From sequence record PV577657: a stretch of 64,000 nucleotides of DNA; one strand, given 5' to 3'. Shown here piece after piece: positions 547 through 36,364 of the stretch. Under the pieces are notes generated by a model, which was given only the letters and a program-made list of their open reading frames with translations, did not search any database and was not told the origin of the DNA. The translations under genes were made by a program, and so were the position numbers. Numbering within the stretch: position 1 is the first letter of the stretch; the number at the start of each line of letters is the position of its first letter. This stretch comes from Escherichia phage vB_EcoS_MM-1.

Positions 547-553
547 GCAGGAT

Positions 554-630: not shown

Positions 631-637
631 TTAAATT

Positions 638-728
638 TGGTGTTGGATGATGGAGTCGAACCACCCGAGACCCTTCCGAGTCGGCAGATTTACAGTCTGC
701 TTCGCTACCTCTACGATACTAATCCAAC
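638..728 (-). tRNA. tRNA-Tyr (anticodon GUA), long variable arm
   Basis: Acceptor GTTGGAT/ATCCAAC, anticodon arm GCAGA-CUGUAAA-UCUGC (same as the E. coli tRNA-Tyr anticodon arm as I recall it), 88 nt class II, encoded CCA. Confidence 0.7.
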
Positions 729-856
729 ATATTTAAAAGTATTCAAATACTAGTTTAAACACTTTTAGATATGTTTCCAAATTAGATAACTATTATATCA
801 AGTTTTATGGCACTGAGCAAGTCAAATTTTAAAGAACTTGCTCAGTGCTGTATTAG

Positions 857-1132
857 TTAGTCGAACTTAGGAGCGACAGTTAAGGAGAATGGAAGTTCGA
901 AAACTTCTTCGCCCTCATCACTAACAGTAATTACACGACCTTTAAGTTCAGACATTGAAATATCAATATCAGCTTTTGCATCTGGAGCCATGCCAGCTTC
1001 AATACATTTAGCTTTAACTTCCGGCAGAAGTTCTACATCGTAGAAATAAAGCCATTCAATCTCACCTTCCCAGCCTTCCCAGGATTTACAGATTGCACTT
1101 TCAATACCAGTTGCTATAACACGATTTTGCAT
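857..1132 (-). CDS. hypothetical early protein
   Basis: 91-aa ORF with AAGGAG RBS and upstream T5-type promoter. Confidence 0.65.
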   Translation of the reverse strand: MQNRVIATGIESAICKSWEGWEGEIEWLYFYDVELLPEVKAKCIEAGMAPDAKADIDISMSELKGRVITVSDEGEEVFELPFSLTVAPKFD

Positions 1133-1139
1133 TCGTTAA

Positions 1140-1200
1140 CTCCTTCATCAATTTATATAACTATTATACCAGAAATTTAAAGCAAAAGGCAAGTACATTT
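1140..1200 (-). promoter_or_regulatory. T5-type early sigma70 promoter
   Basis: Minus-strand TATAAT followed by conserved ATAAATTGATGAAGGAG initial transcribed region/RBS. Confidence 0.5.
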
Positions 1201-1222
1201 TTAAAAATTCTGTTTGGAGGAG

Positions 1223-1429
1223 CTAAACTCCAGATTCTTCAGCTAAGTCTAGGCTAATAAGAGATATAGCCATAATTGCTGCTCCGTGTTCTCTTTCTCC
1301 TGTCTCTTTAGCTAGGGTTATAATATCAAGAAATTGCTTATGAAAGTCTGCAACCTCTTGAGTCATACCTGCCTCAGCAATCATGCCTTTAAGCATGAAA
1401 CGTTGTGCGGTAATTTCGGGATTAGCCAT
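1223..1429 (-). CDS. hypothetical protein
   Basis: 68-aa ORF, GGAGAAA RBS. Confidence 0.6.
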   Translation of the reverse strand: MANPEITAQRFMLKGMIAEAGMTQEVADFHKQFLDIITLAKETGEREHGAAIMAISLISLDLAEESGV

Positions 1430-1589
1430 GTTGTTTCTCCAGTTTCATGTTTAATAGTCTACAAATAAAATCAATGTCTTCATCTGTGCCTAGATCTCTA
1501 TCTTCAAGAGTTGCCTTGAAGTTTTTCGTCAATTCCATGAGGATAACTTCTCTAGAACGACGTGTTGGCGGAGGTGGATGTCTATACAT
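1422..1589 (-). CDS. small hypothetical protein (55 aa, PPPP motif)
   Basis: Hand-translated ORF MYRHPPPPTRRS... with AAGGA RBS; stop overlaps next start (ATGGCTAA); below ORF-track cutoff. Confidence 0.35.
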   Translation of the reverse strand: MYRHPPPPTRRSREVILMELTKNFKATLEDRDLGTDEDIDFICRLLNMKLEKQHG

Positions 1590-1604
1590 CTTATTTCCTT
1601 AAGT

Positions 1605-1681
1605 TGGTAGGGGTGGTGGGATTCGAACCCACAAAACCTGAATTTTAAGTCCAGTACCTATGCCAATTCGATTACACCCCC
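1605..1681 (-). tRNA. tRNA, anticodon tentatively UAA (Leu-like) but class I length
   Basis: Perfect T-arm GTGGG/TTCGAAT/CCCAC, G1-U72 acceptor, anticodon loop CUUAAAA; D-arm does not fold cleanly by hand. Confidence 0.5.
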
Positions 1682-1782
1682 ATGTAATCAGTTTATTAGT
1701 TGATACATATTATAGCCTAGTGAAAATCCTACTACTAGTCCCACAAACCAACCAATATAATAATCTTTTAGTTTCACAGGTA

Positions 1783-1968
1783 TTATCCTCGTTCAATATC
1801 TAGGGAAACACCGCAGTTAGGATTAATACCTGTACCGTTGCAATTTGAACAAATCCAGATATTGCAAAAAGTATCTCCTGCTTCTGCATCAGAACTTTCA
1901 CCAATTCCCCTACACTCAGGGCAGGCACATTCTTCTAGCTCTTGCTTGAGTTCTTGAAACTTGGACAT
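1783..1968 (-). CDS. small Cys-rich protein, putative zinc ribbon
   Basis: 61 aa with CxCPxC...CxxxxCxxC...C spacing. Confidence 0.6.
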   Translation of the reverse strand: MSKFQELKQELEECACPECRGIGESSDAEAGDTFCNIWICSNCNGTGINPNCGVSLDIERG

Positions 1969-2186
1969 ATAGTCTCCTTAGTCAATTACTTTTGAGGCTT
2001 CAAGGGAGTCGATATAGTATACGTTTTCTACCATAATCATATAATCTGCCACTTTATCCATAGCTTGGGCCTCAGAGGTAGCTCTGGCTAACCTATATCC
2101 TTTTTTATATTCATCCGGGTATTCTCTATCTTGAATAAATACAACATAAACTATGTATAATTCCACTTGTAATCCCCTAATTAAGT

Positions 2187-2264
2187 TGGTGGCTCCCCGA
2201 GGATTCGAACCTACGTACCTTCCGGTTATGAGCCGGGTGCTCATACCATATGAGCTTGAGAACC
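2187..2264 (-). tRNA. tRNA with CAU anticodon (Met or Ile2)
   Basis: D-arm GCTC-ATATGGTAT-GAGC, anticodon arm CCGG-CUCAUAA-CCGG, T-loop TTCGAAT, acceptor with two G-U pairs, encoded CCA. Confidence 0.6.
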
Positions 2265-2270
2265 AGAATT

Positions 2271-2359
2271 TGGCGGAAGAAGTGGGAATCGAACCCACAA
2301 GGCTATATTTCAAACCGACAGATTAGCAATCTGCTGCAATACCGTTATGCTATTCTTCC
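2271..2359 (-). tRNA. tRNA-Ser (anticodon GCU), class II
   Basis: Acceptor GGAAGAA/TTCTTCC, anticodon arm GCAGA-UUGCUAA-UCUGU, long variable arm, T-arm GTGGG/TTCGATT/CCCAC. Confidence 0.6.
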
Positions 2360-2380
2360 GAATTTATAAGATATATTATA

Positions 2381-2902
2381 TTAGAAATTTAGCTTCATAG
2401 CAAGAAAATTTTTCAAGTTTTCGGTAGACATCTCATCCACATCTACGGGAGAAACAAAGCCGTTTAATTTTCTAGCAAATTTTTCACCCGCAGGATCGTT
2501 GTCTCCGACAGCTACCAATTTAAAAGGTAATAATTTCAGTTGCTTTAATAACGCTTTTCCTGGAGAAGAACCTAACATTGCCAGGGCTGGATAACCAGCG
2601 TTATGTAGCGCAACTGCCTTAAATACAGATTCAGCGATCAATACTACTTTTTCATCTCCATTGAGAGTTTCTAGTCCCCATACACACTGGGTAGTAGAAT
2701 AAGTAAAATATTTAGCTTCAAAGGGACACTTACCATGACCTTTTGGAGCAGAAGGATTATACGTCTGATAGCCTCGCAACATCCCGGAGAAGTCATACAA
2801 CGGGACTGTTAGCCATCCTTCCGGACTTAACCAGCAATGATATTTATCTGTATCAAATCCTCTGGATAAGAGGTGCTGTGTTAGCTCATCAACATTCATA
2901 TT
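2381..2902 (-). CDS. Toprim-domain protein (stand-alone primase-like/nuclease-like fold)
   Basis: Conserved Glu (IAES) and GDNDPAG DxD motif; likely start MNVDELTQ after GAGAGGAA RBS. Confidence 0.6.
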   Translation of the reverse strand, partial: NMNVDELTQHLLSRGFDTDKYHCWLSPEGWLTVPLYDFSGMLRGYQTYNPSAPKGHGKCPFEAKYFTYSTTQCVWGLETLNGDEKVVLIAESVFKAVALHNAGYPALAMLGSSPGKALLKQLKLLPFKLVAVGDNDPAGEKFARKLNGFVSPVDVDEMSTENLKNFLAMKLNF

Positions 2903-2904
2903 TG

Positions 2905-2990
2905 GTTCCTCTCTCAAATTTATAGATATATTATACAGAGAATTTAGCATTCAAGCAATCAAATTTTTTAACTTTTTAGAGGAAAATCAT
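2905..2990 (-). promoter_or_regulatory. T5-type early promoter
   Basis: Minus-strand TTGCTT -17- TATAAT, then conserved ATCTATAAATTTGAGAGAGGAA. Confidence 0.6.
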
Positions 2991-3069
2991 AGGGCACTTA
3001 AGGGTAGCAGATAAGTGGGGAGGACCAAAATTTGTGACCCCACTAAAAATCCGGGGGCAATTTTTAAAG

Positions 3070-3110
3070 ACCCCTTGACATTTTCGCTGGGGTAGTGTAA
3101 AGTATATGTT
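3070..3110 (+). promoter_or_regulatory. sigma70-like promoter of counter-oriented island
   Basis: TTGACA at 3075-3080; AT-rich -10 candidates 17-23 bp downstream. Confidence 0.4.
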
Positions 3111-3165
3111 ATGGATGAGTGATCAAAGAGACACACATTTTCTATATACTAGGAGGTGTCAAAAT

Positions 3166-4155
3166 ATGACAGAAGAAGTAGCTAAGAGTCCTGAGACCGT
3201 CGCTAGCGTTGCAGCAGAACTGCACCGTCACGAGGAATCAGATAAGAAAAAGTGGGAGAAGGTCAGAGCCTACGAAGAAAAACATCGTGAACACGATGAT
3301 GAAGAAGAAGATGACGATGATGAACATTGTCATAAATATGGAAAACATAAAATGCAAGAACCAGTAAACGTATTCACTAGTGGCTTCCCTGGCCTACTGG
3401 GTGGTTACCCAGCAAACGCAGGTGCTTTCGGTGGTGAAGGTATGGGACTATTCGGAGCTATCCTAATCGGTGCTCTATTAACCGGCGGATTCGGTGGTTT
3501 CGGTGGATTCGGTGGACGTGGTGTAGTTGGTGAAGGTACCGCAGTTGATGCAGTACTTCAGAACCAAGATACCGCTAGTATTCTAGCAGCTATCAACACT
3601 ACTCGTACAGAGGCTAACCAGGGTACTGGAGCTGTTTTAAGCGCAGTTAACAATGGTTTTAGCCAGACAACCCAAAACCAGAGCCGTGATACTCAGTCTG
3701 TACTAACTACGATCTACGGTACAGATGCTAATCTGTCTAATCAGATCTGCCAGGAAACTCGCAACGTTATTCAGGGTCAGTTCGATCTTTCTCGCCAGAT
3801 TGATCAATCTTTCGCAGCTAACCAGATAGCTCGTGCACAAGATAAGTTTGATTCTGCACAGATCGCTTTCCAGCAGACTTTACAAACTAATAACCAGTTT
3901 GCCGCTGTTCAGGCTCAGATGTGTGCTAACCAGAACTCTCTGGAACGTCAGATCGCTGAATGTTGCTGTGAACTTCAGACTGCGATCGCTGGTGTAACTA
4001 CTGCGCGTATCCAGGATGAGTTAGACGCATGTCGCCTACGTGAAGCAATCGCTGCGGGTAGCGGTGCTAACGGTCAGGTAATTAATCAAATCGCTTTAAG
4101 TCTTGGTGCTATCACTCAGACTCTGGCTGGTCTGCAGGCTAAACTGCCGGCTTAA
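3166..4155 (+). CDS. acidic N-terminus / Gly-zipper hydrophobic segment / Q,N,T-rich coiled-coil protein
   Basis: AGGAGG RBS before MTEEV; D/E-rich N-terminus with HCH motif; GGFGGFGGFGG segment; host-optimal codons. Confidence 0.7.
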   Translation: MTEEVAKSPETVASVAAELHRHEESDKKKWEKVRAYEEKHREHDDEEEDDDDEHCHKYGKHKMQEPVNVFTSGFPGLLGGYPANAGAFGGEGMGLFGAILIGALLTGGFGGFGGFGGRGVVGEGTAVDAVLQNQDTASILAAINTTRTEANQGTGAVLSAVNNGFSQTTQNQSRDTQSVLTTIYGTDANLSNQICQETRNVIQGQFDLSRQIDQSFAANQIARAQDKFDSAQIAFQQTLQTNNQFAAVQAQMCANQNSLERQIAECCCELQTAIAGVTTARIQDELDACRLREAIAAGSGANGQVINQIALSLGAITQTLAGLQAKLPA

Positions 4156-4176
4156 TATTAAGGGGAGGAGCCCATT

Positions 4177-4593
4177 ATGAGTAAATATGGTTTTGTAAAT
4201 AACGGACTTAATCAAAGTATGGGCTCCCAGCAGCCCATTCCGGGTCTGGATAACCCCTACTTACAACAGTTGCAACAGCGTTTAGCAGAAGCGCAACAGA
4301 TGCAGCAACAACTCCAGCAAAACCCTGGAAGTGTGAGTCCTATGCAAATGATGCAGCAAATGAGCGGGCAGTCGCAAATGCCTCAACAAATGCAGCAACA
4401 GGTGCCTCAGCAGCAAGTTCAGCAACAAACCCAACAACCGCAGGTTTCTGCGGAAGGACAGGCAGTACTAGCCCTTTTCGAAGACTTCGCAAAGACAGAG
4501 GATGGGAAACAGCTTGTATCACTTATGGGTAAGTTTAATAGCTTCTGCCAAAGCCAAGTTGCAAAAGCTCAAAATGGGGGTAGTAACTCCTAA
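4177..4593 (+). CDS. glutamine-rich low-complexity protein
   Basis: 138 aa, long Q-rich tracts (QQMQQQLQQ..., QQVPQQQVQQQTQQPQ); strong RBS GGGGAGGAG. Confidence 0.7.
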   Translation: MSKYGFVNNGLNQSMGSQQPIPGLDNPYLQQLQQRLAEAQQMQQQLQQNPGSVSPMQMMQQMSGQSQMPQQMQQQVPQQQVQQQTQQPQVSAEGQAVLALFEDFAKTEDGKQLVSLMGKFNSFCQSQVAKAQNGGSNS

Positions 4594-4602
4594 GGAGGAA
4601 AT

Positions 4603-4797
4603 ATGTGTTGCAGAAAATCTGTTTCGTGCTGCCCAGTGCCTGTAGCACGTTGTTGCTCTCCAGCAATGTTTACGCAAATACCGGCGTTCAATCCCTTTGC
4701 CTTTAAGCCTACTCTTATCCTGCCCCCTAGAGTAGATTTTCAGTCAAGATTGGCCTCCCGTATGGGTGGTTGCTGTACACCGAGAGTATGGTTCTAA
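4603..4797 (+). CDS. small Cys-doublet-rich protein
   Basis: 64 aa with four CC doublets; RBS TAAGGAGG; directly precedes terminator. Confidence 0.55.
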   Translation: MCCRKSVSCCPVPVARCCSPAMFTQIPAFNPFAFKPTLILPPRVDFQSRLASRMGGCCTPRVWF

Positions 4798-4810
4798 ACC
4801 AAAAACAAAA

Positions 4811-4843
4811 GCCCCTGCCGAAAGGTAAGGGGCTTTTTCTTTT
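4811..4843 (+). terminator. rho-independent terminator
   Basis: GCCCCTGCC..GGTAAGGGGC hairpin followed by TTTTTCTTTT. Confidence 0.7.
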
Positions 4844-4850
4844 GCCTTAA

Positions 4851-4888
4851 ATACAGAAAAGCCCGCGCTCTCGTAGGAAACGCGGGCT
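4851..4888 (-). terminator. rho-independent terminator for SPFH gene
   Basis: GCCCGCG...CGCGGGC hairpin; T-run on minus strand. Confidence 0.65.
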
Positions 4889-4912
4889 TGGTTCGAAGAT
4901 TACGTGTAACTA

Positions 4913-5860
4913 TTACTTGTTACGCATATCCATGATCATTTGACCATCGTAGCCAGTACCTACCACAGTCTGAGGTACACCACCTTGATACTTCTGAGCA
5001 CGGATCATTTCAACTTCCAGTTGTTTCCAACGAATCATTTCAGGAGTAATGGTACGTTGCAATGCGGCGTTAGCTTCAGCTTCTTTCTTAGCTGCGTACA
5101 GTTTAGCATCTGCGTCACGTTCATTAGCAATAGCTTGGTTGTTACGAGCTTCACGATCTGCTTCTGCTTGTTTAACTTTTTGCTGTGCTTCCTGTTCAAC
5201 GCGAGCAAGTTCAGCTTTCGCAGCATTAACTTGCTCTTCACGAACTTTGGTATTCTGTACCTGTTCCATGATTACTGGCGGCAAGGTAATATCCTGAAGG
5301 AATACCTGCTTAACTGTGTAACCATATGGGCGCGCATACTCTTCAACTTCCTGTTGAATTGCAGTTTGCAATTGAGCCTGAATTTTAGCATCAAATAAAT
5401 CTTGTGCTTTAGGTACAGACTTACCAAACTCACGAATAGTAGACAGTAATTTTTCAGTTACATACTTGTCTAGTGCCTGATCCTGAGTACCTGCGTTAAT
5501 ACGGTTAATCGGTGCTTTAGAACCATCAAACTGCAACATAACAGTCAGGTCAACAGTGGATTTAAACTTATCCTGGCTAGGAACCTGAAGTTTATCTAAT
5601 TTTACAGCAATATCTTTTGTACTAAAAGTATCGAAAGATGCAAACGGGTTTACAAGATGGAAGCCCGGCAATACTGGATTAGGGTCTACTTTACCCAGGA
5701 ATGTTTGGGTTTTAACCGTACCATCAGAAACAATAGTATATGAATTAAAAGCTAGGATTAAACCTGCTAAACCAACTACAGCACCAATACCCCAACGTTT
5801 AATAGTACGAATTACTTTCTGCTCAGAAGTCAGTTCTTTCATATTTTTAGTAGCAAACAT
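4913..5860 (-). CDS. SPFH/band-7 (prohibitin/HflC-like) membrane protein
   Basis: N-terminal TM segment (WGIGAVVGLAGLILAF), SPFH-like core, C-terminal A/E/K/Q-rich coiled coil. Confidence 0.75.
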   Translation of the reverse strand: MFATKNMKELTSEQKVIRTIKRWGIGAVVGLAGLILAFNSYTIVSDGTVKTQTFLGKVDPNPVLPGFHLVNPFASFDTFSTKDIAVKLDKLQVPSQDKFKSTVDLTVMLQFDGSKAPINRINAGTQDQALDKYVTEKLLSTIREFGKSVPKAQDLFDAKIQAQLQTAIQQEVEEYARPYGYTVKQVFLQDITLPPVIMEQVQNTKVREEQVNAAKAELARVEQEAQQKVKQAEADREARNNQAIANERDADAKLYAAKKEAEANAALQRTITPEMIRWKQLEVEMIRAQKYQGGVPQTVVGTGYDGQMIMDMRNK

Positions 5861-5894
5861 ATATTTCCTTTGTTTTAGTTACAGTTAATAAAAT

Positions 5895-5969
5895 TGGCCG
5901 AGGTGACAGGATTCGAACCTGCATAAAGGAATTTAGAAGACTCCTGCCTCTCCCTTAGACTACACCCCG
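5895..5969 (-). tRNA. tRNA-Arg (anticodon UCU)
   Basis: Acceptor CGGGGTG/CACCTCG (1 mismatch), anticodon arm GGAGU-CUUCUAA-AUUCC, T-loop TTCGAAT, encoded CCA. Confidence 0.55.
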
Positions 5970-6472
5970 TTTAAGTATTTTTAAGAACTCTCGTAAAAAC
6001 TCTTAAAAATACAGACGATACCGGGAGAGTCATAAGTCTCACTCATTAAGTATTTCAAGACAAAATACAGTAACGTCTATTATTTTCCAGTTTAAGTCAG
6101 GGTGACTTAGTGGTTATGTCCTGCGGTATATTGAGGACTCGGTTAGGCTTGGGGTCATGACTTCCCACCTTTTGCTGCTACTCAACAGGAGTTATCGCGA
6201 ATTACCTGTGCTATTGTGCACCATTAGTGACATCTCTCATGTCAGCATTTCCCACTTTGTGGATAGCTTGAAAAACTACTCCGATATGGAGAAAGAACTT
6301 CACTATCCTAGAATACCTTCTAAAGTTCTTCTTTAGCCTGGACATAGTTAAATCGTAATAAAACTATTCAGCAGACTGGTTGGTTAGTCTGGAACCAACT
6401 ACCGCGTGGTTTAGGCAGTGCGCAACTAACCTCGGAAGCTTTTATGTTAAAAGCATCAGTTATCCAGTTCTT

Positions 6473-6545
6473 ACCGACCGTAGGATTCGAACCTACATCT
6501 TCCACCAGTTACGGCTTGATAATACCAATTATACTAGGACGGCAG
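6473..6545 (-). tRNA. tRNA-like element (perfect T-arm, no clean anticodon arm)
   Basis: GTAGG/TTCGAAT/CCTAC T-arm with partial acceptor pairing; possibly degenerate. Confidence 0.35.
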
Positions 6546-6744
6546 TGTTACTACATAAGTGATTTCCACACCCCACTATTTATAAATCAGAGAAGAGTTT
6601 AGGGGAGAGGTTTCAGACGCCTCATTTTACACGTTCTAGCCACTAACCGGGATTGCCGCCCCCTGTGTACTAGTTTTACAACTAACCCACCGACTCTATT
6701 CAATGCGCTCCGGTTGGGATTCTGCACTCAGCGTAATCGGCTCG

Positions 6745-6800
6745 CTGTTCCCTAATTTATGAATATATTATACAGAATTTATAAGCATTTAGCAAATGAA
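6745..6800 (-). promoter_or_regulatory. T5-type early promoter driving leftward transcript into noncoding/tRNA region
   Basis: Minus strand TTGCTA -17- TATAAT then ATATTCATAAATTAG. Confidence 0.55.
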
Positions 6801-6803
6801 TTT

Positions 6804-7238
6804 TTAGAAAAATTCACTAGCAATCAAAGCAGTTGTTTTACCGTCATAACGTCCGGGAAATTCTGCCTTAATAGTTTTCATTAATAGAGCTTTGGTAATA
6901 CCTGGGTTTAATTTAACCAGTTCTGCAAAATACTCACGAATCTGAACCTCAGTCAGTTGACTTGGCTGATACTCTTGCAGCATGGAATAAAGCAGTTGCT
7001 CATAGTCTACATCAGTAGGAACTTCCATACCAACTTTAATAGCGCGTTGTTTTGCATTTTCTAGAGCCTTAATCTGAGCTTTCAGATAGGCTACGAACTC
7101 GGTTCGAGTAACAATGTCTTTATCAATACGTTGCAGATCACCAATCATGGTCTGAAGATTAAGTGCCCGTTCCTTATCACCGTGAGTACGTGCTAGACTA
7201 AGTAGTGCACGAAGGGTCATTAGAATATTTTCACCCAT
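6804..7238 (-). CDS. hypothetical protein
   Basis: 144-aa ORF, no recognised motif. Confidence 0.7.
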   Translation of the reverse strand: MGENILMTLRALLSLARTHGDKERALNLQTMIGDLQRIDKDIVTRTEFVAYLKAQIKALENAKQRAIKVGMEVPTDVDYEQLLYSMLQEYQPSQLTEVQIREYFAELVKLNPGITKALLMKTIKAEFPGRYDGKTTALIASEFF

Positions 7239-7408
7239 TATTTCATCCCCAATGCTTGGTTAAAAGATTGTTCTGTCATAACTGCTGAGACTTTGGCGAA
7301 ATCAAACTTTTTAGGGTTCGTAGTTATTTCAGCAACGTTAGAAGTTTTAACAGTTTTCGTAGTACGAATACCGCGAGTGTTAACACCAATAATTACAACT
7401 GATTTCAT
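7238..7408 (-). CDS. small hypothetical protein (56 aa)
   Basis: Hand-translated MKSVVIIGVNTRG...; GAGAGGAAG RBS; stop overlaps downstream start. Confidence 0.4.
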   Translation of the reverse strand: MKSVVIIGVNTRGIRTTKTVKTSNVAEITTNPKKFDFAKVSAVMTEQSFNQALGMK

Positions 7409-7419
7409 ATTTCGCTTCC

Positions 7420-7476
7420 TCTCATTAATTTATGAAAGTATTATACAGAAATTTAAGTAGCTAAGCAAGTAAATTT
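7420..7476 (-). promoter_or_regulatory. T5-type early promoter
   Basis: Shared motif TTGCTTAGCTACTTAAATTTCTGTATAATACTTTCATAAATTAATGAGAGG (minus strand). Confidence 0.55.
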
Positions 7477-7944
7477 TTAAGTTTTAGTGACAACAGGTTT
7501 ATAGAATGTATGTCCCTTAATCTTAGTTGTTTTCTTAAACTTCTTTGTCCAGTAAGGTTTATCTTTACCACTATGGAAGTATAGTGCTCCATATGTAGGA
7601 TCTTGTGGTAAATCAACGTAGTATATCACTCTAGCTAAATTCTTAGCGGTTTGCCAAGCCTCATCAGTTTTATCAACTTTTGGTCTCTTAGATACCCAAG
7701 AGAACTGGTTAGACTGATATACTACTTTACAGTAGGAATCTGGGAATTTACCGGAGTTTACACGGTTTTTAGTAACATGTGCAATCGCCGTCATTCCCTT
7801 TATGCCCTCACCACGACTTTCGAAATAGATATTTTTAGCAATGCAATCTATTTCTTTTGCATCGTGCGATGCCTGACTACTAAAGCTGAAGGTAAGGGCA
7901 GCTACTAAAAGCAAAGCTGCCTTCATTCTTTTTACTCCTGCCAA
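7477..7944 (-). CDS. secreted SleB/CwlJ-like cell-wall hydrolase
   Basis: Signal peptide MKAALLLVAALTFSFSSQA; SleB-like motifs (NIYFES, VTKNRV, QFSW). Confidence 0.7.
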   Translation of the reverse strand: MAGVKRMKAALLLVAALTFSFSSQASHDAKEIDCIAKNIYFESRGEGIKGMTAIAHVTKNRVNSGKFPDSYCKVVYQSNQFSWVSKRPKVDKTDEAWQTAKNLARVIYYVDLPQDPTYGALYFHSGKDKPYWTKKFKKTTKIKGHTFYKPVVTKT

Positions 7945-8249
7945 TCATATTCAACACGATTGGGATTTTCTTTATACCCTAAGTCAAGCAAATCATTACG
8001 CATATTTTGCTTAGCTACTGGGTTCGAGGTTACTAGTACCACTTTCTTTGGTCTCTGCCCAAATTCTAAGAGTAAACGAAGAATTTGATAACCTTCCATA
8101 CCATCTACAGCCAAGTCATTATCCATATAAACGAAATGGCCGGTGGTATCAGTTTTATTCAGAAACTCTACAGCGGCTTCTGGGGTTCGAATGATAATGT
8201 CCATTCCGTGAAGATTACGCACATCATCAATCAAAATATGAAAAGTCAT
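7932..8249 (-). CDS. receiver (REC/CheY-like) domain protein
   Basis: ILIDDV acidic pocket, central MDNDL Asp, VVLVTSNP; CheY-fold spacing. Confidence 0.55.
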   Translation of the reverse strand: MTFHILIDDVRNLHGMDIIIRTPEAAVEFLNKTDTTGHFVYMDNDLAVDGMEGYQILRLLLEFGQRPKKVVLVTSNPVAKQNMRNDLLDLGYKENPNRVEYDWQE

Positions 8250-8320
8250 AATAGCCTCGTTTCATCAATTTAAAAATATATTATACAGATAACTTAGTAA
8301 ATTAGCAAATACATTTTTAA
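8250..8320 (-). promoter_or_regulatory. T5-type early promoter
   Basis: Minus strand TTGCTAATTTACTAAGTTATCTGTATAATATATTTTTAAATTGATGAAACGAGG. Confidence 0.55.
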
Positions 8321-8691
8321 ATTGTGAAACTAGTAAACCGATAAACAGCCTAGAGGCGCCACAGGCCATATCTTATGAGCCATGTACCTTTGATCTAGGG
8401 TTTGAATCATCAACGAATACTTTGCATCTTTTAGCTTTAGAAGTTTAGAAGTTTGAGTTCTTTAAACTTTTCAGCTTTCATACTTAAATGTTGATCTTTG
8501 AAGTTGTGTCGGTAATATCAACGACGCTTTGTTCTTACGTGTCAGCTTAAAAGGCTGGTGTAATAAACATAATCTCCAATAGATTATACTTTATAGTATG
8601 GTCAGCGGTCTTATTTAACCTCGTATTTCAACCGCTGCTGCGAGGTAAGATGCTTGGGCTTTCGTCTACCGATTTACTAGCTTTTAAATTA

Positions 8692-9330
8692 TTACTCTAC
8701 TTCAATGAAGGTAGAGGCGTTAGACTCGGACAGAACAAAATCAACATTTGTTGCAAAGTCCTGGTATTCCTCGTCATGCTGCTTAATCAGCTTCTCCAGT
8801 TCCAGCGGATCAATCAAGAATGGAGTATTCTTGAGTTCCAGCAGGTTGAGCTGCATTTTAACTTCATCTTCGGAAGTTTTCTTATCGCGGGTAGCCATGC
8901 TATCCTGCAAACGCTCATATTTAGCATCAAACTGTGCTTTCTGCGTATTAAACTTAACCGTGGCGGCATGGAACTGCTTACGCATGTTAGCCAGCAGTTG
9001 GGCTTTAAGTTCCATAGAACGCTTAGCTTCAATTGCTTCCGCAACAGTCATTTTACGAGAGCCTATCTCAACGATCGTTTCTGCATTGCTCTTAATCAGA
9101 GCAGCTTTGATACGATCACGCTGGGACATCATATCCAGCAGGGACTGGAAATCTGTCTTAATACGCTCAGATAAATCATCTACTTCGATTGCAGCGCCAA
9201 CTACAACCTTATTTTTATCCTTACCTTCACCAACAGCGATCAGAAGCTGTTGTTCAGTAGCTTTACGGATTTTAGCTTCCAGAGATTTGATAGTTGCCAG
9301 AGCGCGAGTTTTAGAGATACGAGTAGTCAT
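8692..9330 (-). CDS. hypothetical coiled-coil protein
   Basis: 212-aa ORF with AAGGAAG RBS; antisense shadow ORFs overlap. Confidence 0.7.
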   Translation of the reverse strand: MTTRISKTRALATIKSLEAKIRKATEQQLLIAVGEGKDKNKVVVGAAIEVDDLSERIKTDFQSLLDMMSQRDRIKAALIKSNAETIVEIGSRKMTVAEAIEAKRSMELKAQLLANMRKQFHAATVKFNTQKAQFDAKYERLQDSMATRDKKTSEDEVKMQLNLLELKNTPFLIDPLELEKLIKQHDEEYQDFATNVDFVLSESNASTFIEVE

Positions 9331-9383
9331 TATTTGCTTCCTTATATGAAGTTTGAGATTTGAATTTGTTTAAAGTTGGTCTA

Positions 9384-9566
9384 TTACAGACCAATTGCCA
9401 GCAGAGTGCGCAGAACAGTATCGTTACTGTTATCAATTTTAGGATTAGCACGATTTAGCAGATCAAAGATTTTCTGGATACCTGATTGACGTTCAGCCAT
9501 ACGACGGATACCCAGATTACGAGTAGCTTTCTTACCATTTTTACGAACATTTTTAGATACTGGCAT
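9384..9566 (-). CDS. small basic protein
   Basis: 60 aa, K/R-rich N-terminus. Confidence 0.5.
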   Translation of the reverse strand: MPVSKNVRKNGKKATRNLGIRRMAERQSGIQKIFDLLNRANPKIDNSNDTVLRTLLAIGL

Positions 9567-9574
9567 ATTTGTTT

Positions 9575-9636
9575 TCCTTTTATTGTTTTCTCAAATTTAT
9601 GAATATATTATACAGAATTTTGGAGCCGGAAGCAAA
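9575..9636 (-). promoter_or_regulatory. T5-type early promoter
   Basis: Shared motif with TATAAT and CATAAATTTGAG (minus strand). Confidence 0.55.
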
Positions 9637-31427: not shown

Positions 31428-31736
31428 ATGAGCGAACAGGTAAATCAAAACTATGAAGGACACGTTGATGACCAGTCCATCATACTTTGGGAGAAGGAGG
31501 GAGAACAAGTAAGATTAACAGTATCTGAATTTCGTGGGAATCTATACATGGGTATTCGTTACTGGCTTCTTGATATTAATGATGAGTGGTTTCCAACGAA
31601 ATCTGGCTTCTCTTTTCCTTACACCCTAGAAACAACATCACAGCTTTTCTATGCGTTTACACAGATTCTTAGCGAATCTGAGGTTTTACATGAAGTACAG
31701 AAACGAGCTGAAGAACTCAAAGCCAAGAATGCCTAG
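31428..31736 (+). CDS. hypothetical protein
   Basis: 102-aa ORF. Confidence 0.65.
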   Translation: MSEQVNQNYEGHVDDQSIILWEKEGEQVRLTVSEFRGNLYMGIRYWLLDINDEWFPTKSGFSFPYTLETTSQLFYAFTQILSESEVLHEVQKRAEELKAKNA

Positions 31737-31745
31737 TTCTTGGCT
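31711..31745 (+). terminator. rho-independent terminator overlapping stop codon
   Basis: AGCCAAGAA-TGCCTAG-TTCTTGGCT + TTTTTC. Confidence 0.6.
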
Positions 31746-31763
31746 TTTTCTTTATAAATGTAC

Positions 31764-31810
31764 TTGCTTTCAACTCAGTTTTGTTATATAATATTTATAT
31801 AAATTAATGA
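31764..31810 (+). promoter_or_regulatory. T5-type early promoter
   Basis: TTGCTT -17- TATAAT then TTTATATAAATTAATGAGAGGG. Confidence 0.65.
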
Positions 31811-31822
31811 GAGGGTTGCAAA

Positions 31823-32095
31823 GTGAAAAAGATAAGTATAAGTACACTTAAACCTTTCCCGTACATCGGACAGCCTCTTATACTTATGTGGGAGGAGAAG
31901 ATTAATGGGGAAAAGTATACTAAAACTAGAAGTGGGTATAAGCTGACTTCACTTCATTACGAAAAAGAAGTATTAGTAGCTGAAATATACTCTCCGTTGT
32001 CAGATAGGCTAGTAAAAACTACATATTTGCATCGTTGCAAAAATTATACATGGCACGGATCCACTAGACAACCCTCATACTGTGAGGCAGAATAA
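31823..32095 (+). CDS. hypothetical protein
   Basis: 90-aa ORF, GTG start after GAGGG. Confidence 0.6.
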   Translation: MKKISISTLKPFPYIGQPLILMWEEKINGEKYTKTRSGYKLTSLHYEKEVLVAEIYSPLSDRLVKTTYLHRCKNYTWHGSTRQPSYCEAE

Positions 32096-33067
32096 ATGAC
32101 CAATGTAAAAGACTTTATTAAACGCTGTCAAGAAGCATATTATCAAGGTATGTCTTTAATCTCTGACGAAGAATATGATCGTCTGATTAAAAGATTTCCG
32201 TTAGAAGAAGAGATCGGGCCTAAGGGCGATATTCCACATCTGTATCGTATGTATTCTTTACAGAAAGTTTATTATAATCGTGGAGATAAACCCCCGTTTA
32301 ACCCATTAGGTCAGGTAGAAACTGATAAGTTAGATGGTTGTGCAATTTCTCTGTTATATATTAATGGCGAATTTGTTCAAGCACTAACTCGTGGTAACGG
32401 TATTCTAGGGAATGATGTCACAAGCAACGTAAGATTGCTGAACATCCCTAAAAAGATTTCCCAAAAAGTACCTACTCAAATCACTGGTGAAGTTCTAATT
32501 ACAAAAGAAGTAGAAAATAAACGTAACTTTGCCTCTGGTGCTATTAACCTCAAAGATAGTGATGATTTTGTACAACGTATCGGAGAAGGTGGTTTAATCT
32601 TCGTTGCATATGGTATCCAGTGTTCTGCTGAATCTGTAGGTATTACAGAAGCATATTTAAAAGATATGCTTTGGCTGGAGAATGAGAACTTCTTAACAGT
32701 TGTTAATGTGCGTTCTTTCTTTAAATGGATTCCGACGGACGGTAAAGTTGTTCGTATTAATGATAACAACAAATTCTTCCGTGAAGGCTGGACTAATAAA
32801 TTCCCTCGTGGAGCATTCGCTATTAAAGAGGATGAAGAAGGCGAGATTACAACTCTTACTAAAGTTGAATGGCAGGTAGGAGCTTCTGGTAAAGTAACTC
32901 CAGTTGGTTATTTCGAACCGGTAATTATTGATGATGCTACAATTGTTAAAGCGACTCTTAATAACGTTGATTATATTAACTCTCTTGATCTAGAGATCGG
33001 TTGCCAGATTCGAGTGATTCGTGCTGGTGGTGTAATCCCGTGCATAGTAGAGCGAGTATATGATTAA
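32096..33067 (+). CDS. NAD-dependent DNA ligase, N-terminal fragment (adenylation + OB domains)
   Basis: KxDG adenylation motif (DKLDGCAISLLY); ends after OB-fold region; 323 aa. Confidence 0.85.
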   Translation: MTNVKDFIKRCQEAYYQGMSLISDEEYDRLIKRFPLEEEIGPKGDIPHLYRMYSLQKVYYNRGDKPPFNPLGQVETDKLDGCAISLLYINGEFVQALTRGNGILGNDVTSNVRLLNIPKKISQKVPTQITGEVLITKEVENKRNFASGAINLKDSDDFVQRIGEGGLIFVAYGIQCSAESVGITEAYLKDMLWLENENFLTVVNVRSFFKWIPTDGKVVRINDNNKFFREGWTNKFPRGAFAIKEDEEGEITTLTKVEWQVGASGKVTPVGYFEPVIIDDATIVKATLNNVDYINSLDLEIGCQIRVIRAGGVIPCIVERVYD

Positions 33068-33210
33068 TACATAGCCCTTTGCTACCCATCTACCATATCG
33101 GAATTATAAAGTGGTTATTGACATTTTCGCCGCTTAGGTATATACTATTATCATTCAGTTGAGGGATAGAAAGTTATGGCGAGGGTAAGCAAAGTTAGTT
33201 AAAATTGTAG

Positions 33211-33266
33211 TTGCTAAATGCTTAAATACTTGTTATAATATTTATATAAATTGATAAGGAAGAAAT
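33211..33266 (+). promoter_or_regulatory. T5-type promoter inside ligase split
   Basis: TTGCTA -17- TATAAT then ATTTATATAAATTGATAAGGAAG; second TTGACA-17-TATACT at 33116-33145. Confidence 0.6.
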
Positions 33267-34049
33267 TTGATGAAAATCGAAATTCCAACACAATGTCCCT
33301 CTTGTGGTTCTAAGCTAGATCTTGTCAACGGACAATTATTTTGTCGGAATAAGTCCAACTGTCCAGCGCAATCAAGTAAGTTAATTGAGAACTTCTGTAC
33401 AAAAATGAAGTTAAAGGGCTTTGGTCCAAAAACTATTGAAAAGCTGGAGCTGACGAAGATCTCAGAACTATTTTACCTAACCGAAGAAGATTTGGTTAGA
33501 GCCGTGGGTAGCAAGGTTGCCGCTAAGTTAATTAGCGAATTAAATACTAAAGTTCGCGGAGACATTGACTTTGGTTCAGTTCTCGGTTCTTTAGGAATCC
33601 CTCTAATTGGAGAGGTTGCAGCAAAGAAATTATCCCAAAATTGCACTAGCTTCCACGATGTGAAGGCTGACGGCAAGGCTGGAGAAAACTACAAAGCCTG
33701 GCTAAATTCCCCGCAAGGCAAGGATGTTATCGAACTACCGTGGAAATTCTCAACTGGTATTAAGGGCACTAAAGCTGACGTCATCATTACAGATGAATTA
33801 GTTGCCCAGCCAAATGGAATCGCGGTATGTATTACCGGATCTTTGCAAGATTTTGCAAATCGAACGGATGCAACAAACTATTTAGAAAGTCTAGGGTATA
33901 CGGTTAAGAAATCCGTTACCAAAGACGTAAAATACCTGATCTGTGAGGATGAATCAAAACGTTCTTCCTCATCTTATAAGAAAGCCGAAACGAATGGGAT
34001 AGAAATCCTGTCGATTAAAGAACTATTGGAGAAAAATAATAATGTCTAA
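33267..34049 (+). CDS. NAD-dependent DNA ligase, C-terminal fragment (Zn-finger, HhH, BRCT)
   Basis: Starts at LigA-type Zn finger CPSCGS...C..C; HhH-like GIPLIGEVAAKKL; 260 aa. Confidence 0.85.
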   Translation: MMKIEIPTQCPSCGSKLDLVNGQLFCRNKSNCPAQSSKLIENFCTKMKLKGFGPKTIEKLELTKISELFYLTEEDLVRAVGSKVAAKLISELNTKVRGDIDFGSVLGSLGIPLIGEVAAKKLSQNCTSFHDVKADGKAGENYKAWLNSPQGKDVIELPWKFSTGIKGTKADVIITDELVAQPNGIAVCITGSLQDFANRTDATNYLESLGYTVKKSVTKDVKYLICEDESKRSSSSYKKAETNGIEILSIKELLEKNNNV

Positions 34050-34809
34050 ACTGAACTGGAACGTAGAAGGTGTAACCGAGTCTCTGAAAGCAAAAGCCAC
34101 TGCTCTGGGTGTTTCTGTAATCTCTCAAGAACAAGTAGCTGCTATCGCTGCTGAACTGGCTGCTGAAACTGGCAAAGATGTTACTGCTCGCTCTGTTGGC
34201 TCTAAACTGCGTAAAGAAGGTTTTGAAGTACAGAAAGCTAACGAAGTACAGAAATCCCCGTGGACTCCTGAGCAGGAAGCTGAACTGGTTGATTTCCTGA
34301 ACGCTCATGCTGGTCAGTATACCTATGCTGAAATCGCTGCTGCTGTAGCTGGTGGTCAGTTCGGTGCTAAACAGGTACAGGGTAAGATCCTGAGTCTGGA
34401 AATGACCGCTTCTGTTAAACCAACTGAAAAAGCTGCTGCTGTTCGTTCCTTTACTCCGGATGAAGAAACTGATTTTGTTAATCAGGTTGTTGCTGGTGCT
34501 ACTATTGAAGCTATCGCTGCTCACTTCGGTCGTAATATCAAGCAGATCCGTGGTAAAGCTCTGAGCCTGCTTCGTGAAGGTCGTATCGCTGCTATGCCGG
34601 TACAGGAAACTTCCAGTGCTAAAACTCGTGAAGATCTGTTAGAAGGTCTGGATCTGGTTAACATGACTGTTGCTGAGATCGCTGAGAAAACTGGTAAGTC
34701 TGAGCGCGGTGTTAAATCTATGCTGTCTCGTCGTGGTCTGGTTGCTAAGGACTATGATGGTGCCGCTAAGCGTGCTAAACTGGATGCAAAAGCTGCGGCT
34801 GCTGAATAA
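34042..34809 (+). CDS. DNA-binding protein with four tandem HTH-like repeats (D5-like)
   Basis: Four internal repeats of about 40 aa; Ala-rich; host-optimal codons. Confidence 0.65.
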   Translation: MSKLNWNVEGVTESLKAKATALGVSVISQEQVAAIAAELAAETGKDVTARSVGSKLRKEGFEVQKANEVQKSPWTPEQEAELVDFLNAHAGQYTYAEIAAAVAGGQFGAKQVQGKILSLEMTASVKPTEKAAAVRSFTPDEETDFVNQVVAGATIEAIAAHFGRNIKQIRGKALSLLREGRIAAMPVQETSSAKTREDLLEGLDLVNMTVAEIAEKTGKSERGVKSMLSRRGLVAKDYDGAAKRAKLDAKAAAAE

Positions 34810-34825
34810 TCTGGTAAATTAAACC

Positions 34826-34860
34826 TAAGGGGAGGGGGCTATGCTCCTTCCCCTTTTTGC
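34826..34860 (+). terminator. rho-independent terminator
   Basis: AAGGGGAGGGGG...CTCCTTCCCCTT hairpin + TTTT. Confidence 0.65.
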
Positions 34861-34891
34861 ATTTAGAAGGCACGAAAGCGTGCAAAGGAGA

Positions 34892-36364
34892 ATGACCTTG
34901 TTTAACGTGCAAGCTGTAGTGTTGAAGATGCTTCTAGCTTCTGAACAGAAGCAAATAGCATTGGAAACATTCTCAAAACTGCATAAAGATCATTTTAATG
35001 ACGCTTTCTCCTCAATTTACCAAGCCGTCCAGAATTATTATAAAAAATATAACACAATGCCGTCCATTGACGCACTGATGCTTGAGGCTAATAGGAACGC
35101 CCGCCTTTCTCAAGCTCTAGTCGTTTTAGCTAACACTCAAATTCCAGAAGTGAGCATGGAACAGGCACTTGAAGTCCTAGAGGCCGAATATACACAGGAT
35201 TTATTCCTAAAGCTTCTAGAAACAGACGTGCTTCAAGATTTAACAATGCTGGATCAGGGAGAAATTCTCAACCGAGTTGCCTCCCTTCACTTAAAATTAG
35301 AAGAGAAAGTAACGAATACTGGAAAAGTATTCAACGCAGATAACATGCGTATTTTCCAGAGAGAAGAAGATACCAAACTGAACCTAATCGCTCTTGGTAT
35401 TTGTAATGAGTTCGACGCTCAAATTGGTTTAGCTCGCACAGAAACGTTACTGCTTGGTGGTTGGCGTGGTACTGGTAAATCCATTATCTGTTCAAACATA
35501 CAGGTTCAGCAATATTTGAATGGAGATATTGCTCCATACTTCTCAATTGAGATGAAAGAACATGAAGTATTTAGACGTAATCTAGCCATGCTAGCTGGTG
35601 TATCAGCACTAGCAATGCGTAATAATACTCTAGAAGGTGCAGCTCTGTTGAGACTAGCCAGAACTAGAGCTAGGATGTTCAACGGTGGTGAAGAGCTTTT
35701 CGATAACTTCGTTAAACAGTATACAATGGCTAAGATGAGTGATTTCTACGATATGGAGAGTAAGCTAATAGAAGGGTATGAGCTACATACTCCTATGATT
35801 ATTGTTTATGACCCTGAGTTGTCTATTACAACAGTTGACGTAGAATTAAATAAATTAGTTGCTAGATATGGTGATAAAGTTACAGTAGCTCTACTTGACT
35901 ATATTAACCAAACCCGACTTCCAGACTCTAAAACCATTGATATGTATGACTGGAAAGAACAGATGGTTGTTAGCTCGTCTTTCAAATCTATCTGCCAGAA
36001 ACATAACGTGGCTGGCGTAGCTCCTTACCAGATCGATCAAGACGGTAGAACACGTATGTCAAAGGGGATTCTTGATTCCGCAGACATGGCTGCTAATCTT
36101 AATGCTGCAAAAGCTGATAATGGTCAAGGTGCTATTATGTTTGACTTCGTTAAGACTCGTTCTTCTGATAGCGTGAAGTTTATGCCTAAAATGAACTGGG
36201 AAACTCTGCGAATGGATAACACTACCAACCTAGCAATGGAAGATATATCTCAAATGGAAGCTGAGTTCGTTATCCCTATTGAGAAGGATAAGCCGGCTCA
36301 ACCTAAACGTGCTAAGAAAGACAAAGCTGAAAATTCAACAGGTGAACAGGCCAGCGATATATGA
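34892..36364 (+). CDS. replicative helicase (DnaB/RecA-fold ATPase-like)
   Basis: Walker A GGWRGTGKS; start at MTLFNV after AAAGGAG (ORF-track 34841 overlaps terminator). Confidence 0.65.
   Translation: MTLFNVQAVVLKMLLASEQKQIALETFSKLHKDHFNDAFSSIYQAVQNYYKKYNTMPSIDALMLEANRNARLSQALVVLANTQIPEVSMEQALEVLEAEYTQDLFLKLLETDVLQDLTMLDQGEILNRVASLHLKLEEKVTNTGKVFNADNMRIFQREEDTKLNLIALGICNEFDAQIGLARTETLLLGGWRGTGKSIICSNIQVQQYLNGDIAPYFSIEMKEHEVFRRNLAMLAGVSALAMRNNTLEGAALLRLARTRARMFNGGEELFDNFVKQYTMAKMSDFYDMESKLIEGYELHTPMIIVYDPELSITTVDVELNKLVARYGDKVTVALLDYINQTRLPDSKTIDMYDWKEQMVVSSSFKSICQKHNVAGVAPYQIDQDGRTRMSKGILDSADMAANLNAAKADNGQGAIMFDFVKTRSSDSVKFMPKMNWETLRMDNTTNLAMEDISQMEAEFVIPIEKDKPAQPKRAKKDKAENSTGEQASDI

Follow-up and report, generated by a model that had tools for sequence, protein, structure and literature searches.

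Bacterial NAD+-dependent DNA ligases (LigA), such as those of E. coli (PDB 2OWO) and Thermus filiformis (1DGS/1V9P), consist of six modules in a fixed order, which in E. coli form a single chain of 671 amino acids. [quoted passage not shown] The T5 genome record (GenBank AY692264; Wang et al. 2005, Virology 332:45, as cited in PMC1684257) lists ligA (T5p114, AAU05253), the promoters P-K 28b and P-K 28a, and ligB (T5p115, AAU05254). The split ligase and its two promoters are thus already known, having been part of the T5 annotation since 2005. A homologous enzyme from Providencia phage PR1/PSTCR5 (Demerecviridae) has been deposited as PDB 9HU3 and 9I5I, with 'DNA ligase (NAD+)' as chain A and 'DNA ligase subunit B' as chain B. 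When chain B was rebuilt from our alignment, it matched Providencia phages PR1 and PSTCR5 at 100% identity. Our literature search returned no publication on these two entries, and it is the deposit, with its two chains per entry, that supports the biochemical claim.

Here we analyzed a 64,000-nucleotide stretch of Escherichia phage vB_EcoS_MM-1 (PV577657), referred to as the window. The window derives from a T5-like phage and shows 100% identity to Escherichia phage vB_EcoS_MM-2. In addition, 428 T5-like records span most of the region of interest. Very probably, this region encodes the NAD+-dependent DNA ligase of a T5-like phage (Demerecviridae) in its two-subunit form, with the spacer between the two genes serving as a conserved regulatory region (Table 1).

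Table 1. Coordinates of the features at the ligA-ligB locus (positions in the window).
Feature	Coordinates	Strand	Description
Intrinsic-terminator-like hairpin	31719..31747	+	12-pair stem followed by T run; closes the upstream unit, right ahead of the ligA promoter
Promoter of the orf90-ligA unit (predicted)	31764..31792	+	TTGCTT-17-TATAAT; aligns with a 'putative promoter' of T5 st0
90-aa accessory ORF	31823..32095	+	phrog_35018 (function unknown); between the ligA promoter and ligA
ligA	32096..33067	+	ATG start, 323 aa; short domain Ia, adenylation domain (KLDG, Lys78), OB fold
Intergenic spacer	33068..33269	+	199 bp to TTG 33267, 202 bp to ATG 33270
Promoter P-K28b (predicted)	33118..33146	+	TTGACA-17-TATACT, 11/12 matches; annotated in T5 st0 and S114
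Promoter P-K28a (predicted)	33211..33239	+	TTGCTA-17-TATAAT, 10/12 matches, TG extended -10, then ATATT; annotated in T5 st0 and S114
ligB ribosome-binding site	33256..33262	+	AAGGAAG, from sequence; conserved; ATG 33270 lies 7 nt downstream
ligB	33270..34049	+	259 aa from the conserved ATG; Cys4 Zn finger, HhH domain, BRCT domain
D5-like DNA-binding protein gene	34042..34809	+	Sigma70_r4_2 HTH; ATG overlaps the ligB stop (ATGTCTAA)
Terminator-like hairpin	34827..34855	+	13 pairs, 8 of them GC, followed by T run; ends the ligB-D5-like unit

Gene order, break point, length of the 199-bp spacer and promoters are the same in T5 as in the window; the preliminary description of this DNA had likewise named a two-ORF ligase as the annotated arrangement of T5. 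LigA is identical to its T5 counterpart at 321 of 323 positions and LigB at 252 of 259, and 197 of 199 spacer positions agree (T5 st0); the record of phage S114 is annotated like that of T5 st0. T5 differs only upstream, where the 90-aa ORF of the window is missing, as it is from most T5-like relatives. The same two-chain architecture is found in 9HU3/9I5I, which the window proteins match end to end (chain A, E = 4e-104; chain B, E = 5e-81), although the source phages belong to another genus and are well diverged: window LigB shows 55% identity to the PR1/PSTCR5 contigs (L043 and L047 in our set; tblastn). Thus, the locus has adjacent ligA and ligB genes on the same strand, orthology to T5 and 9HU3, and predicted promoters close to ligB, as in the T5-type two-subunit ligase.

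Pfam assigned DNA_ligase_aden (PF01653; 83.5 bits) and DNA_ligase_OB (PF03120; 78.4 bits) to the ligA ORF and a BRCT domain to the ligB ORF (33.3 bits, above the cut-off of 21.3). Matches to HhH families in LigB fell under the curated cut-offs (HHH_2, 24.5 bits at a cut-off of 27). Concatenated LigA and LigB align colinearly with E. coli LigA: the OB fold of LigA corresponds to residues 284-390 of 2OWO, and residues 4-123 of LigB to residues 402-529 (E = 8e-11). The cut falls into the linker between the OB fold and the Zn finger, at E. coli residues ~392-400, confirming the claim of the preliminary description that the ligase is encoded as two ORFs separated at this junction. The adenylation, Ia and OB modules as well as the Zn finger, HhH and BRCT modules of the LigA family are all present; only the single polypeptide is not. 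The phage enzyme is more compact than bacterial LigA (323 + 259 aa), with deletions in domain Ia, the nucleotidyltransferase domain and the HhH domain.

Lys78 of the KLDG motif of LigA aligns with K115 of E. coli LigA, and K314 is likewise conserved. In the shortened domain Ia, the phage sequence AYY...SDEEYD corresponds by alignment to LYH...PDAEYD of E. coli; residues Y22, D32, Y35 and D36 are retained, and H23 is replaced by Tyr. At the position of E. coli Lys290 (motif IV), the phage enzymes have Arg. All four cysteines of the Zn finger are present in LigB (C9, C12, C25 and C31 in ATG numbering, corresponding to E. coli C408, C411, C426 and C432).

The start of ligB differs between annotations, being TTG in the T5 st0 record and ATG in the S114 record. 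The preliminary description had placed it at TTG 33267 (ORF 33267..34049, + strand, 260 aa) behind a ribosome-binding site of its own. The ribosome-binding site is conserved and stands; the start codon is better placed at ATG 33270, which is the conserved one, while TTG 33267 is not kept in Sugarlandvirus. At its 3' end ligB overlaps the D5-like gene, an overlap that distant relatives share and that also follows some of the fused ligases (see below). Given this overlap, the D5-like gene would be co-transcribed with ligB and is probably translationally coupled to it.

Could the two ORFs nevertheless yield one polypeptide, by read-through, frameshifting, RNA splicing or protein trans-splicing? 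Nothing in the data spoke for this. The ORFs lie in different reading frames, and the gap (33068-33266, 31% GC) contains multiple stop codons in all three. A search of positions 31500-34600 against Rfam gave no match at E values up to 1, and thus no group I or II intron; the predicted fold of the spacer RNA is unremarkable (z = -1.0), and Pfam detects no intein or Hint domain. Moreover, the gap measures anything between 62 and 1359 bp among the loci surveyed and differs in content, some gaps holding unrelated genes, and the homologue is deposited as two chains. We therefore consider a single product extremely improbable, and the halves hold up as separate polypeptides.

The split was present in every Demerecviridae-like genome that we examined. 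A relative of LigB is carried by ~960 phage records, and ligA was found directly upstream, as a separate gene on the same strand, in 80 of 80 IMG/VR loci. Among the best 120 LigA homologues (down to 46% identity), all carry the adenylation and OB domains only and all are 310-337 aa long, except for one 240-aa partial sequence. The break falls into the same alignment column in each of the 10 lineages aligned. On these sequence comparisons, the split is of family-wide age.

This distribution also bears on whether the locus is a broken gene, with one half decaying as a pseudogene and the phage relying on the LigA of its host. A bacterial LigA truncated after the OB fold (LigN-deltaC) self-adenylates but cannot ligate (PMC1684257), so LigA on its own would be useless, as expected of a pseudogene. 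However, both halves are intact and keep their catalytic and Zn-binding residues across the ~960 records, down to ~40% identity; each half has its own ribosome-binding site and predicted promoter; and the homologous pair has been solved structurally. No frequent frameshifts or raised dN/dS were seen in either half in the loci examined. Decay of one half is accordingly hardly credible.

We next consider the spacer. The two promoter-like elements noted there in the preliminary description were recovered by our scan, correspond to P-K28b and P-K28a of the T5 annotation, and are conserved across genera. Promoter-like sites are no more frequent in the region as a whole than in shuffled sequence (8 found, 8.8 expected), and the significance of the spacer elements therefore rests on their conservation. 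Both hexamer pairs are invariant from the T5-like phages to Klebsiella, Pectobacterium and Aeromonas phages, while the flanking sequence diverges. In nearly all lineages a TTGnnn-17-TATAAT element is located ~50-58 nt 5' of ligB, even where the gap measures only 62-107 bp, and it stays beside ligB where extra genes have been inserted. Among the non-coding elements of the junction, the promoter adjoining ligB is the best conserved, as judged by sequence. Based on conservation and the T5 annotation, P-K28b and P-K28a are predicted to function as promoters. The T5 annotation of these promoters derives from older in vitro work. A literature search for P-K28a and P-K28b returned no paper, and the supplement of PMC7472727 has no K28 entry.

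In its -10 element and leader, the predicted promoter of the orf90-ligA unit closely matches P-K28a, and a 25-nt direct repeat of promoter/leader sequence (31787-31811 and 33234-33258) is 92% identical between the two sites. The hairpin that precedes this upstream promoter is conserved in T5 and in a Klebsiella phage. A candidate mini-ORF in the spacer (ATG 33176, MARVSKVS, with GAGGGA as ribosome-binding site) was dropped for lack of conservation in Sugarlandvirus, Pectobacterium and Aeromonas phages.

These features suggest how the two-subunit ligase may work. LigA, comprising domain Ia, the nucleotidyltransferase domain and the OB fold, would perform the adenylation chemistry, using Lys78 of the KLDG motif and the NAD-specific residues of domain Ia. 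LigB, with Zn finger, HhH and BRCT domains, would provide the DNA-binding and clamping part that is covalently attached in bacterial LigA. The two chains would assemble non-covalently and seal nicks during replication of the phage DNA. The occurrence of both homologous chains in the same PDB entries points indirectly to an active LigA-LigB complex, and we infer that the heterodimer is active in the present phage as well. At the level of transcription, ligA would be the last gene of the preceding unit, driven by the P-K28a-like promoter upstream of the 90-aa ORF, while P-K28b and P-K28a would act as tandem early promoters in vivo and start a unit of ligB and the D5-like gene that ends at the downstream hairpin. 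No terminator was found between ligA and ligB, so up to three promoters would contribute to ligB mRNA, as against a single one for ligA mRNA. LigB may consequently be made in excess over LigA. Differential expression of the halves, as proposed in the preliminary description, is thus plausible, considering the two additional conserved promoters of ligB and the lack of a terminator between ligA and ligB.

In Aeromonas phage Aeh1, nrdA-a, mobE and nrdA-b represent 'genes in pieces' generated by a free-standing homing endonuclease. The ligase locus is similar in that the gene of an essential enzyme is present as two adjacent ORFs whose products reassemble. The preliminary description had viewed the spacer as looking like the scar of a mobile-element insertion. 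In this scenario, a free-standing homing endonuclease gene or another cassette would have broken the ligase linker and later been lost, with the promoters gained or retained. Indeed, the ligase halves of some relatives enclose an endonuclease gene, as the nrdA halves do in Aeh1. In Salmonella phages SP3 (L039:3184-3840; PF01541, 26 bits) and vB_Sen_SG_WM_RUS_R2, and in one unrelated environmental lineage (L088), a GIY-YIG gene is placed precisely between ligA and the promoters; the L088 protein scores 22.2 bits for GIY-YIG, just below the cut-off of 22.6, and 29.3 bits for an I-HmuI NUMOD-like domain. The final ~90 nt of SP3 ligA show only 76% identity to the window, compared to 96.5% on the 3' side of the insertion, which resembles a co-conversion footprint. 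Other cargo is accepted as well, including a DprA-like gene and various small ORFs. Since GIY-YIG genes occupy the gap in relatives, the ligA-ligB junction is a landing site for mobile genes.

In contrast to Aeh1, however, the window and nearly all of its relatives contain neither an endonuclease gene nor a remnant of one between the halves, but a conserved promoter region. The window spacer showed no similarity to either GIY-YIG protein (tblastn, E > 0.6), save for a short stretch that is read through by the SP3 ORF, and none to any other endonuclease or any transposase. It lacks insertion-element repeats or termini, a search for direct and inverted repeats returning only the 25-nt promoter/leader repeat. 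The endonuclease gene is confined to two phages among 437 T5-like records, and it follows the stop codon of ligA, indicating that it arrived in an already split gene. No GIY-YIG remnant was detected in the insert of 8sent65 (tblastn with the two GIY-YIG proteins), and small ORFs in the gaps of Vibrio and Salmonella phages, screened for endonuclease remnants with Pfam and PHROGs, gave only a DprA-like protein and crAss001_48-like proteins. Finally, the split is of family-wide age, and it is the promoter that is conserved, with a predicted one also present inside the linker of some unsplit relatives, offering an origin that involves no mobile element. An origin of the split and spacer as a scar is therefore unlikely, and the spacer is better described as an old promoter region shared by the family.

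The unsplit relatives (P0152, P0188 and others) come from uncultured T5-like phages. They are encoded by one ORF of 555-586 aa, with the same compact domain set as LigA plus LigB, a linker of 15-30 aa, and 39-46% identity to LigA. Their neighborhood is that of the split locus, consisting of a PC4-like gene, the ligase, a D5-like gene, DnaB and primase; this T5-like gene order was found for all 10 fused ligases looked up. Fused ligases are interleaved with split forms. These relatives suggest, as a tentative possibility, less likely than not, that split and fused states are interchangeable around a promoter in the OB-to-Zn linker. The sequence-tolerant linker of an ancestral compact ligase would have held a promoter for the downstream replication genes, the split would have arisen by gain of a stop codon, a ribosome-binding site and a start codon around it, and re-fusion by their loss; either change would be nearly neutral, as the halves assemble anyway. 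This proposal would extend the two-subunit explanation by an origin and does not contradict it.

The linker codons of P0188 contain a perfect 12/12 site (TTGACA-17-TATAAT), for which shuffling gave a chance of 0.001 of occurring in any of ten linker windows, and those of P0152 contain TTGAAT-18-TGcTATAAT followed by ATATT. Five further fused genes have a site with at least 10/12 matches located 10-80 codons past the first Zn cysteine, in a broader window that was set after the data had been seen. In 17 kb of fused genes, only 2 of 9 sites are found at other positions. On the other hand, the predicted promoter is strictly in the linker in only 2 of 10 fused genes, and two genes have none. Fitch parsimony required 6-11 changes between split and fused states in 60 of 60 bootstrap neighbor-joining replicates, but all pairwise identities are 40-50%, so that the tree is near star-like and the number of changes provisional. 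The loci compared include no close split/fused pair for an alignment of the junction at the DNA level. That the selected feature at the OB/Zn junction is the early promoter for the downstream replication genes rather than the split, and that the states have switched several times, is a speculative and somewhat doubtful conclusion from sequence comparison.

As first described, the split ligase of this phage adds little to what was available, given the T5 annotation of 2005 and the solved structure of a homologous two-chain enzyme. What the survey adds is a single cut position throughout the family, a promoter that hugs ligB, a junction that serves as a landing pad, and unsplit relatives in the same gene order. 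Together, the split and fused enzymes provide a natural set of ligases for analyzing how fission of a multidomain enzyme is tolerated, and whether the position of promoters drives the splitting of phage genes. If the selected feature is indeed the promoter, the two-subunit ligase of T5 would be a by-product of a promoter embedded in a protein linker, and internal transcripts may yield a free Zn-HhH-BRCT protein in phages with the fused enzyme.

The split ligase of the window is an already known feature. The window is from a T5-like phage with hundreds of relatives and is 100% identical to Escherichia phage vB_EcoS_MM-2. In the T5 st0 record (AY692264), ligA (T5p114), 'promoter P-K 28b', 'promoter P-K 28a' and ligB (T5p115) follow one another in the same order and spacing, with identities to the window of 197/199 in the spacer between the genes, 321/323 in LigA and 252/259 in LigB, confirming the statement in the preliminary description that a two-ORF ligase is the T5 arrangement. 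The annotation of Salmonella phage S114 matches this layout. The gene products are given as subunits A and B (PMC3632103). In PDB entries 9HU3 and 9I5I, chain A, named 'DNA ligase (NAD+)', and chain B, named 'DNA ligase subunit B', match window LigA and LigB end to end (E 4e-104 and 5e-81, respectively). Chain B, reconstructed from the alignment, matches Providencia phages PR1 and PSTCR5, also Demerecviridae, at 100% identity. A literature search for a paper accompanying these entries found none.

The observation is confirmed, and both ORFs lie where they were first read from the sequence. By Pfam, the ligA product carries the NAD-ligase adenylation and OB domains, and the ligB product a BRCT match and weaker HhH matches, with a Cys4 zinc finger readable directly from the sequence. 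A ligB restart at 33267 with its own RBS had been proposed; the RBS is present (AAGGAAG, 7 nt before ATG 33270), but the start kept in relatives is this ATG and not the TTG at 33267. Splicing or read-through to a single polypeptide had been named as the case against a split. We set aside read-through, frameshifting and splicing because the 199-bp, AT-rich spacer (31% GC) has stops in all three frames, ligA and ligB lie in different reading frames, an Rfam search at the ligase locus gave no match, and folding of the spacer RNA does not stand out from that of shuffled sequence (z = -1.0).

Features of the ligase locus and its relatives (window coordinates unless a locus of a relative, L-number, or a gene is named)
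Feature	Position	Detail
Terminator-like hairpin	31719-31747	sequence scan
ligA promoter	31764-31792	TTGCTT-17-TATAAT
90-aa ORF	31823-32095	GTG start; phrog_35018, function unknown
ligA	32096-33067	323 aa
Promoter P-K28b	33118-33146	TTGACA-17-TATACT
Mini-ORF	33176-33202	8 codons (MARVSKVS)
Promoter P-K28a	33211-33239	TTGCTA-17-TATAAT, TG extended -10
ligB	33267 (TTG) or 33270 (ATG) to 34049	260 or 259 aa
Terminator-like hairpin	34827-34855	sequence scan
DnaB-like helicase ORF	34841-36364	longest-ORF start (ATG)
GIY-YIG homing endonuclease gene	L039:3184-3840	SP3 (MG387042 / NC_048001); also PQ002169; upstream of P-K28b
GIY-YIG + I-HmuI NUMOD-like endonuclease gene	L088:3127-3936	IMGVR_UViG_3300035670_000065; ligA-ligB gap
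DprA-like gene (phrog_768)	L006:1817-2344, L010:1840-2412, L005:783-1346	
64-aa ORF	L002:1970-2164	Salmonella phage 8sent65
Putative linker promoter, fused ligase P0188		perfect TTGACA-17-TATAAT; encodes VDNLSSDEYNN
Putative linker promoter, fused ligase P0152		TTGAAT-18-TGcTATAAT, then ATATT
Sites past first Zn cysteine, fused genes	L097:3355; in gene: L100 1132, L103 1177, L099 1151, L098 992	at least 10/12 sigma-70-like

Concatenated LigA and LigB are colinear with E. coli LigA across Ia, nucleotidyltransferase, OB, Zn, HhH and BRCT; the phage enzyme is the more compact of the two. Counterparts of Ia residues Y22, D32, Y35 and D36, the KxDG lysine (phage Lys78), K314 and all four zinc-finger cysteines are kept. 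E. coli K290 aligns with Arg. The break stands in place of ~6-10 linker residues between OB and Zn (E. coli LigA ~392-400), and the ten lineages compared all have it in one and the same alignment column.

Relatives of LigB occur in ~960 phage records, with Escherichia, Salmonella, Klebsiella, Pectobacterium, Proteus, Providencia, Serratia, Aeromonas and Vibrio as hosts, and ligA and ligB are separate in every representative phage inspected. Among 80 IMG/VR loci (LigB identity 38-100%), ligA lies directly upstream of ligB on the same strand in all 80, with a gap of 62 to 1359 bp, and none is fused. The best 120 LigA homologues (lowest identity 46%) in a set of 5.8 billion proteins all contain adenylation and OB domains only and, one 240-aa partial excepted, measure 310-337 aa. 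OR847187.1 ('Listeria phage LM 4-11-1', 4772 bp) and P0012 ('Enterococcus faecalis', partial) carry T5-like ligase sequence at 97-100% identity; these labels probably reflect contamination or mislabelled fragments.

The spacer had been said to look like the scar of a mobile-element insertion, a reading that was not borne out: it has no similarity to endonucleases or transposases, and no terminal repeats were found at it. It is instead a conserved promoter region. Both promoter-like elements noticed earlier were found by the scan, and their hexamers are invariant in T5-like, Sugarlandvirus, Hongcheonvirus and Shenzhenvirus phages, in contrast to the intervening and flanking sequence, which diverges. 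In a wider survey, nearly every lineage has a TTGnnn-17-TATAAT site that begins ~50-58 nt ahead of the ligB start, including environmental phages with a gap of only 62-107 bp; cultured Demerecviridae have an extra promoter ~146-154 nt upstream of ligB. A mini-ORF with a GAGGGA RBS downstream of P-K28b is kept only in close T5-like phages, not in other genera, and is probably not a gene.

Other genes have nevertheless landed at the junction, in a gene already split. Only two of 437 T5-like records, Salmonella phages SP3 and vB_Sen_SG_WM_RUS_R2, have a 218-aa GIY-YIG gene, which directly follows the ligA stop. Identity of SP3 to the window is only 76% over the final ~90 nt of ligA, compared to 96.5% downstream of the insertion, a pattern that, judged from sequence, looks like co-conversion during homing. 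The endonuclease of an environmental T5-like phage (L088) is a different one, distant from that of SP3 (25% identity). In further lineages the gap is occupied by a DprA-like gene or by small ORFs without known function. In Vibrio phages pVp-1 and phi 3 the DprA-like gene is located in the ligA-ligB gap, but in Pectobacterium phage DU_PP_V it directly precedes ligA. The 8sent65 ORF, made by a ~159-bp insertion after the ligA stop, has no match in Pfam or PHROG and no similarity to the GIY-YIG genes. Inserted genes in the Vibrio phages and SP3 follow the ligA stop and precede the promoters, which still adjoin ligB. On the evidence of these insertions, an endonuclease-driven origin of the split itself is possible, though unlikely.

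Among 1.84 billion cluster representatives searched, there are fused ligases 555-586 aa long (39-46% identity to LigA), interleaved with split forms. All ten looked up have the T5-like gene order (PC4-like gene, ligase, D5-like gene, DnaB, primase), one being found on three independent contigs. Two of the ten (P0188, P0152) have a predicted sigma-70 promoter inside the linker codons; by shuffling, a 12/12 site would turn up somewhere in the ten linker windows with a probability of 0.001. Five more have a site of at least 10/12 located 10-80 codons past the first Zn cysteine, which may be an internal promoter for downstream genes, and two have no such site. Bootstrap NJ trees need 6-11 changes between split and fused states, a provisional count because all pairwise identities are 40-50%. 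That the promoter at the junction is the selected feature, and fission its tolerated by-product, is a tentative reading that we hold with considerable doubt.

Between the ligA promoter and ligA lies a 90-aa ORF whose stop abuts the ligA ATG (TAAATG). It is missing from T5 and most T5-like phages, and is carried by MM-2, SelmaRatti, Tennessee, KookSpook and Klebsiella Sugarlandvirus phages. The ligA promoter repeats the -10 and leader of P-K28a at 92% identity. This early-promoter -10/leader cassette, TATAATATTTATATAAATT, occurs at 14 sites in the window at ≤3 mismatches, compared to 0.2 expected by chance, and agrees with the ATATT discriminator signature that PMC7472727 reports for early promoters of T5. 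The sites lie on the minus strand at 65-9612, on the plus strand at 21751-42763 and on the minus strand at 62369, switches that would mark divergent early transcription blocks. The scan found no terminator between ligA and ligB. The longest-ORF ATG of the DnaB-like helicase (34841), also used in the T5 annotation, falls in the loop of the terminator-like hairpin (34827-34855) behind the D5-like gene; translation may really start at a Met further downstream, or helicase expression may be modulated by the hairpin.

The next gene, which encodes a D5-like sigma-70 region-4 HTH protein, has an ATG that overlaps the ligB stop. We propose that ligA would be the last gene of one early transcription unit and that ligB would open the next, consisting of ligB and the D5-like gene, with up to three putative promoters for ligB and one for ligA. 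The conserved promoters adjoining ligB, together with ligA's own, point to the suggested potential for separate expression of the two halves.
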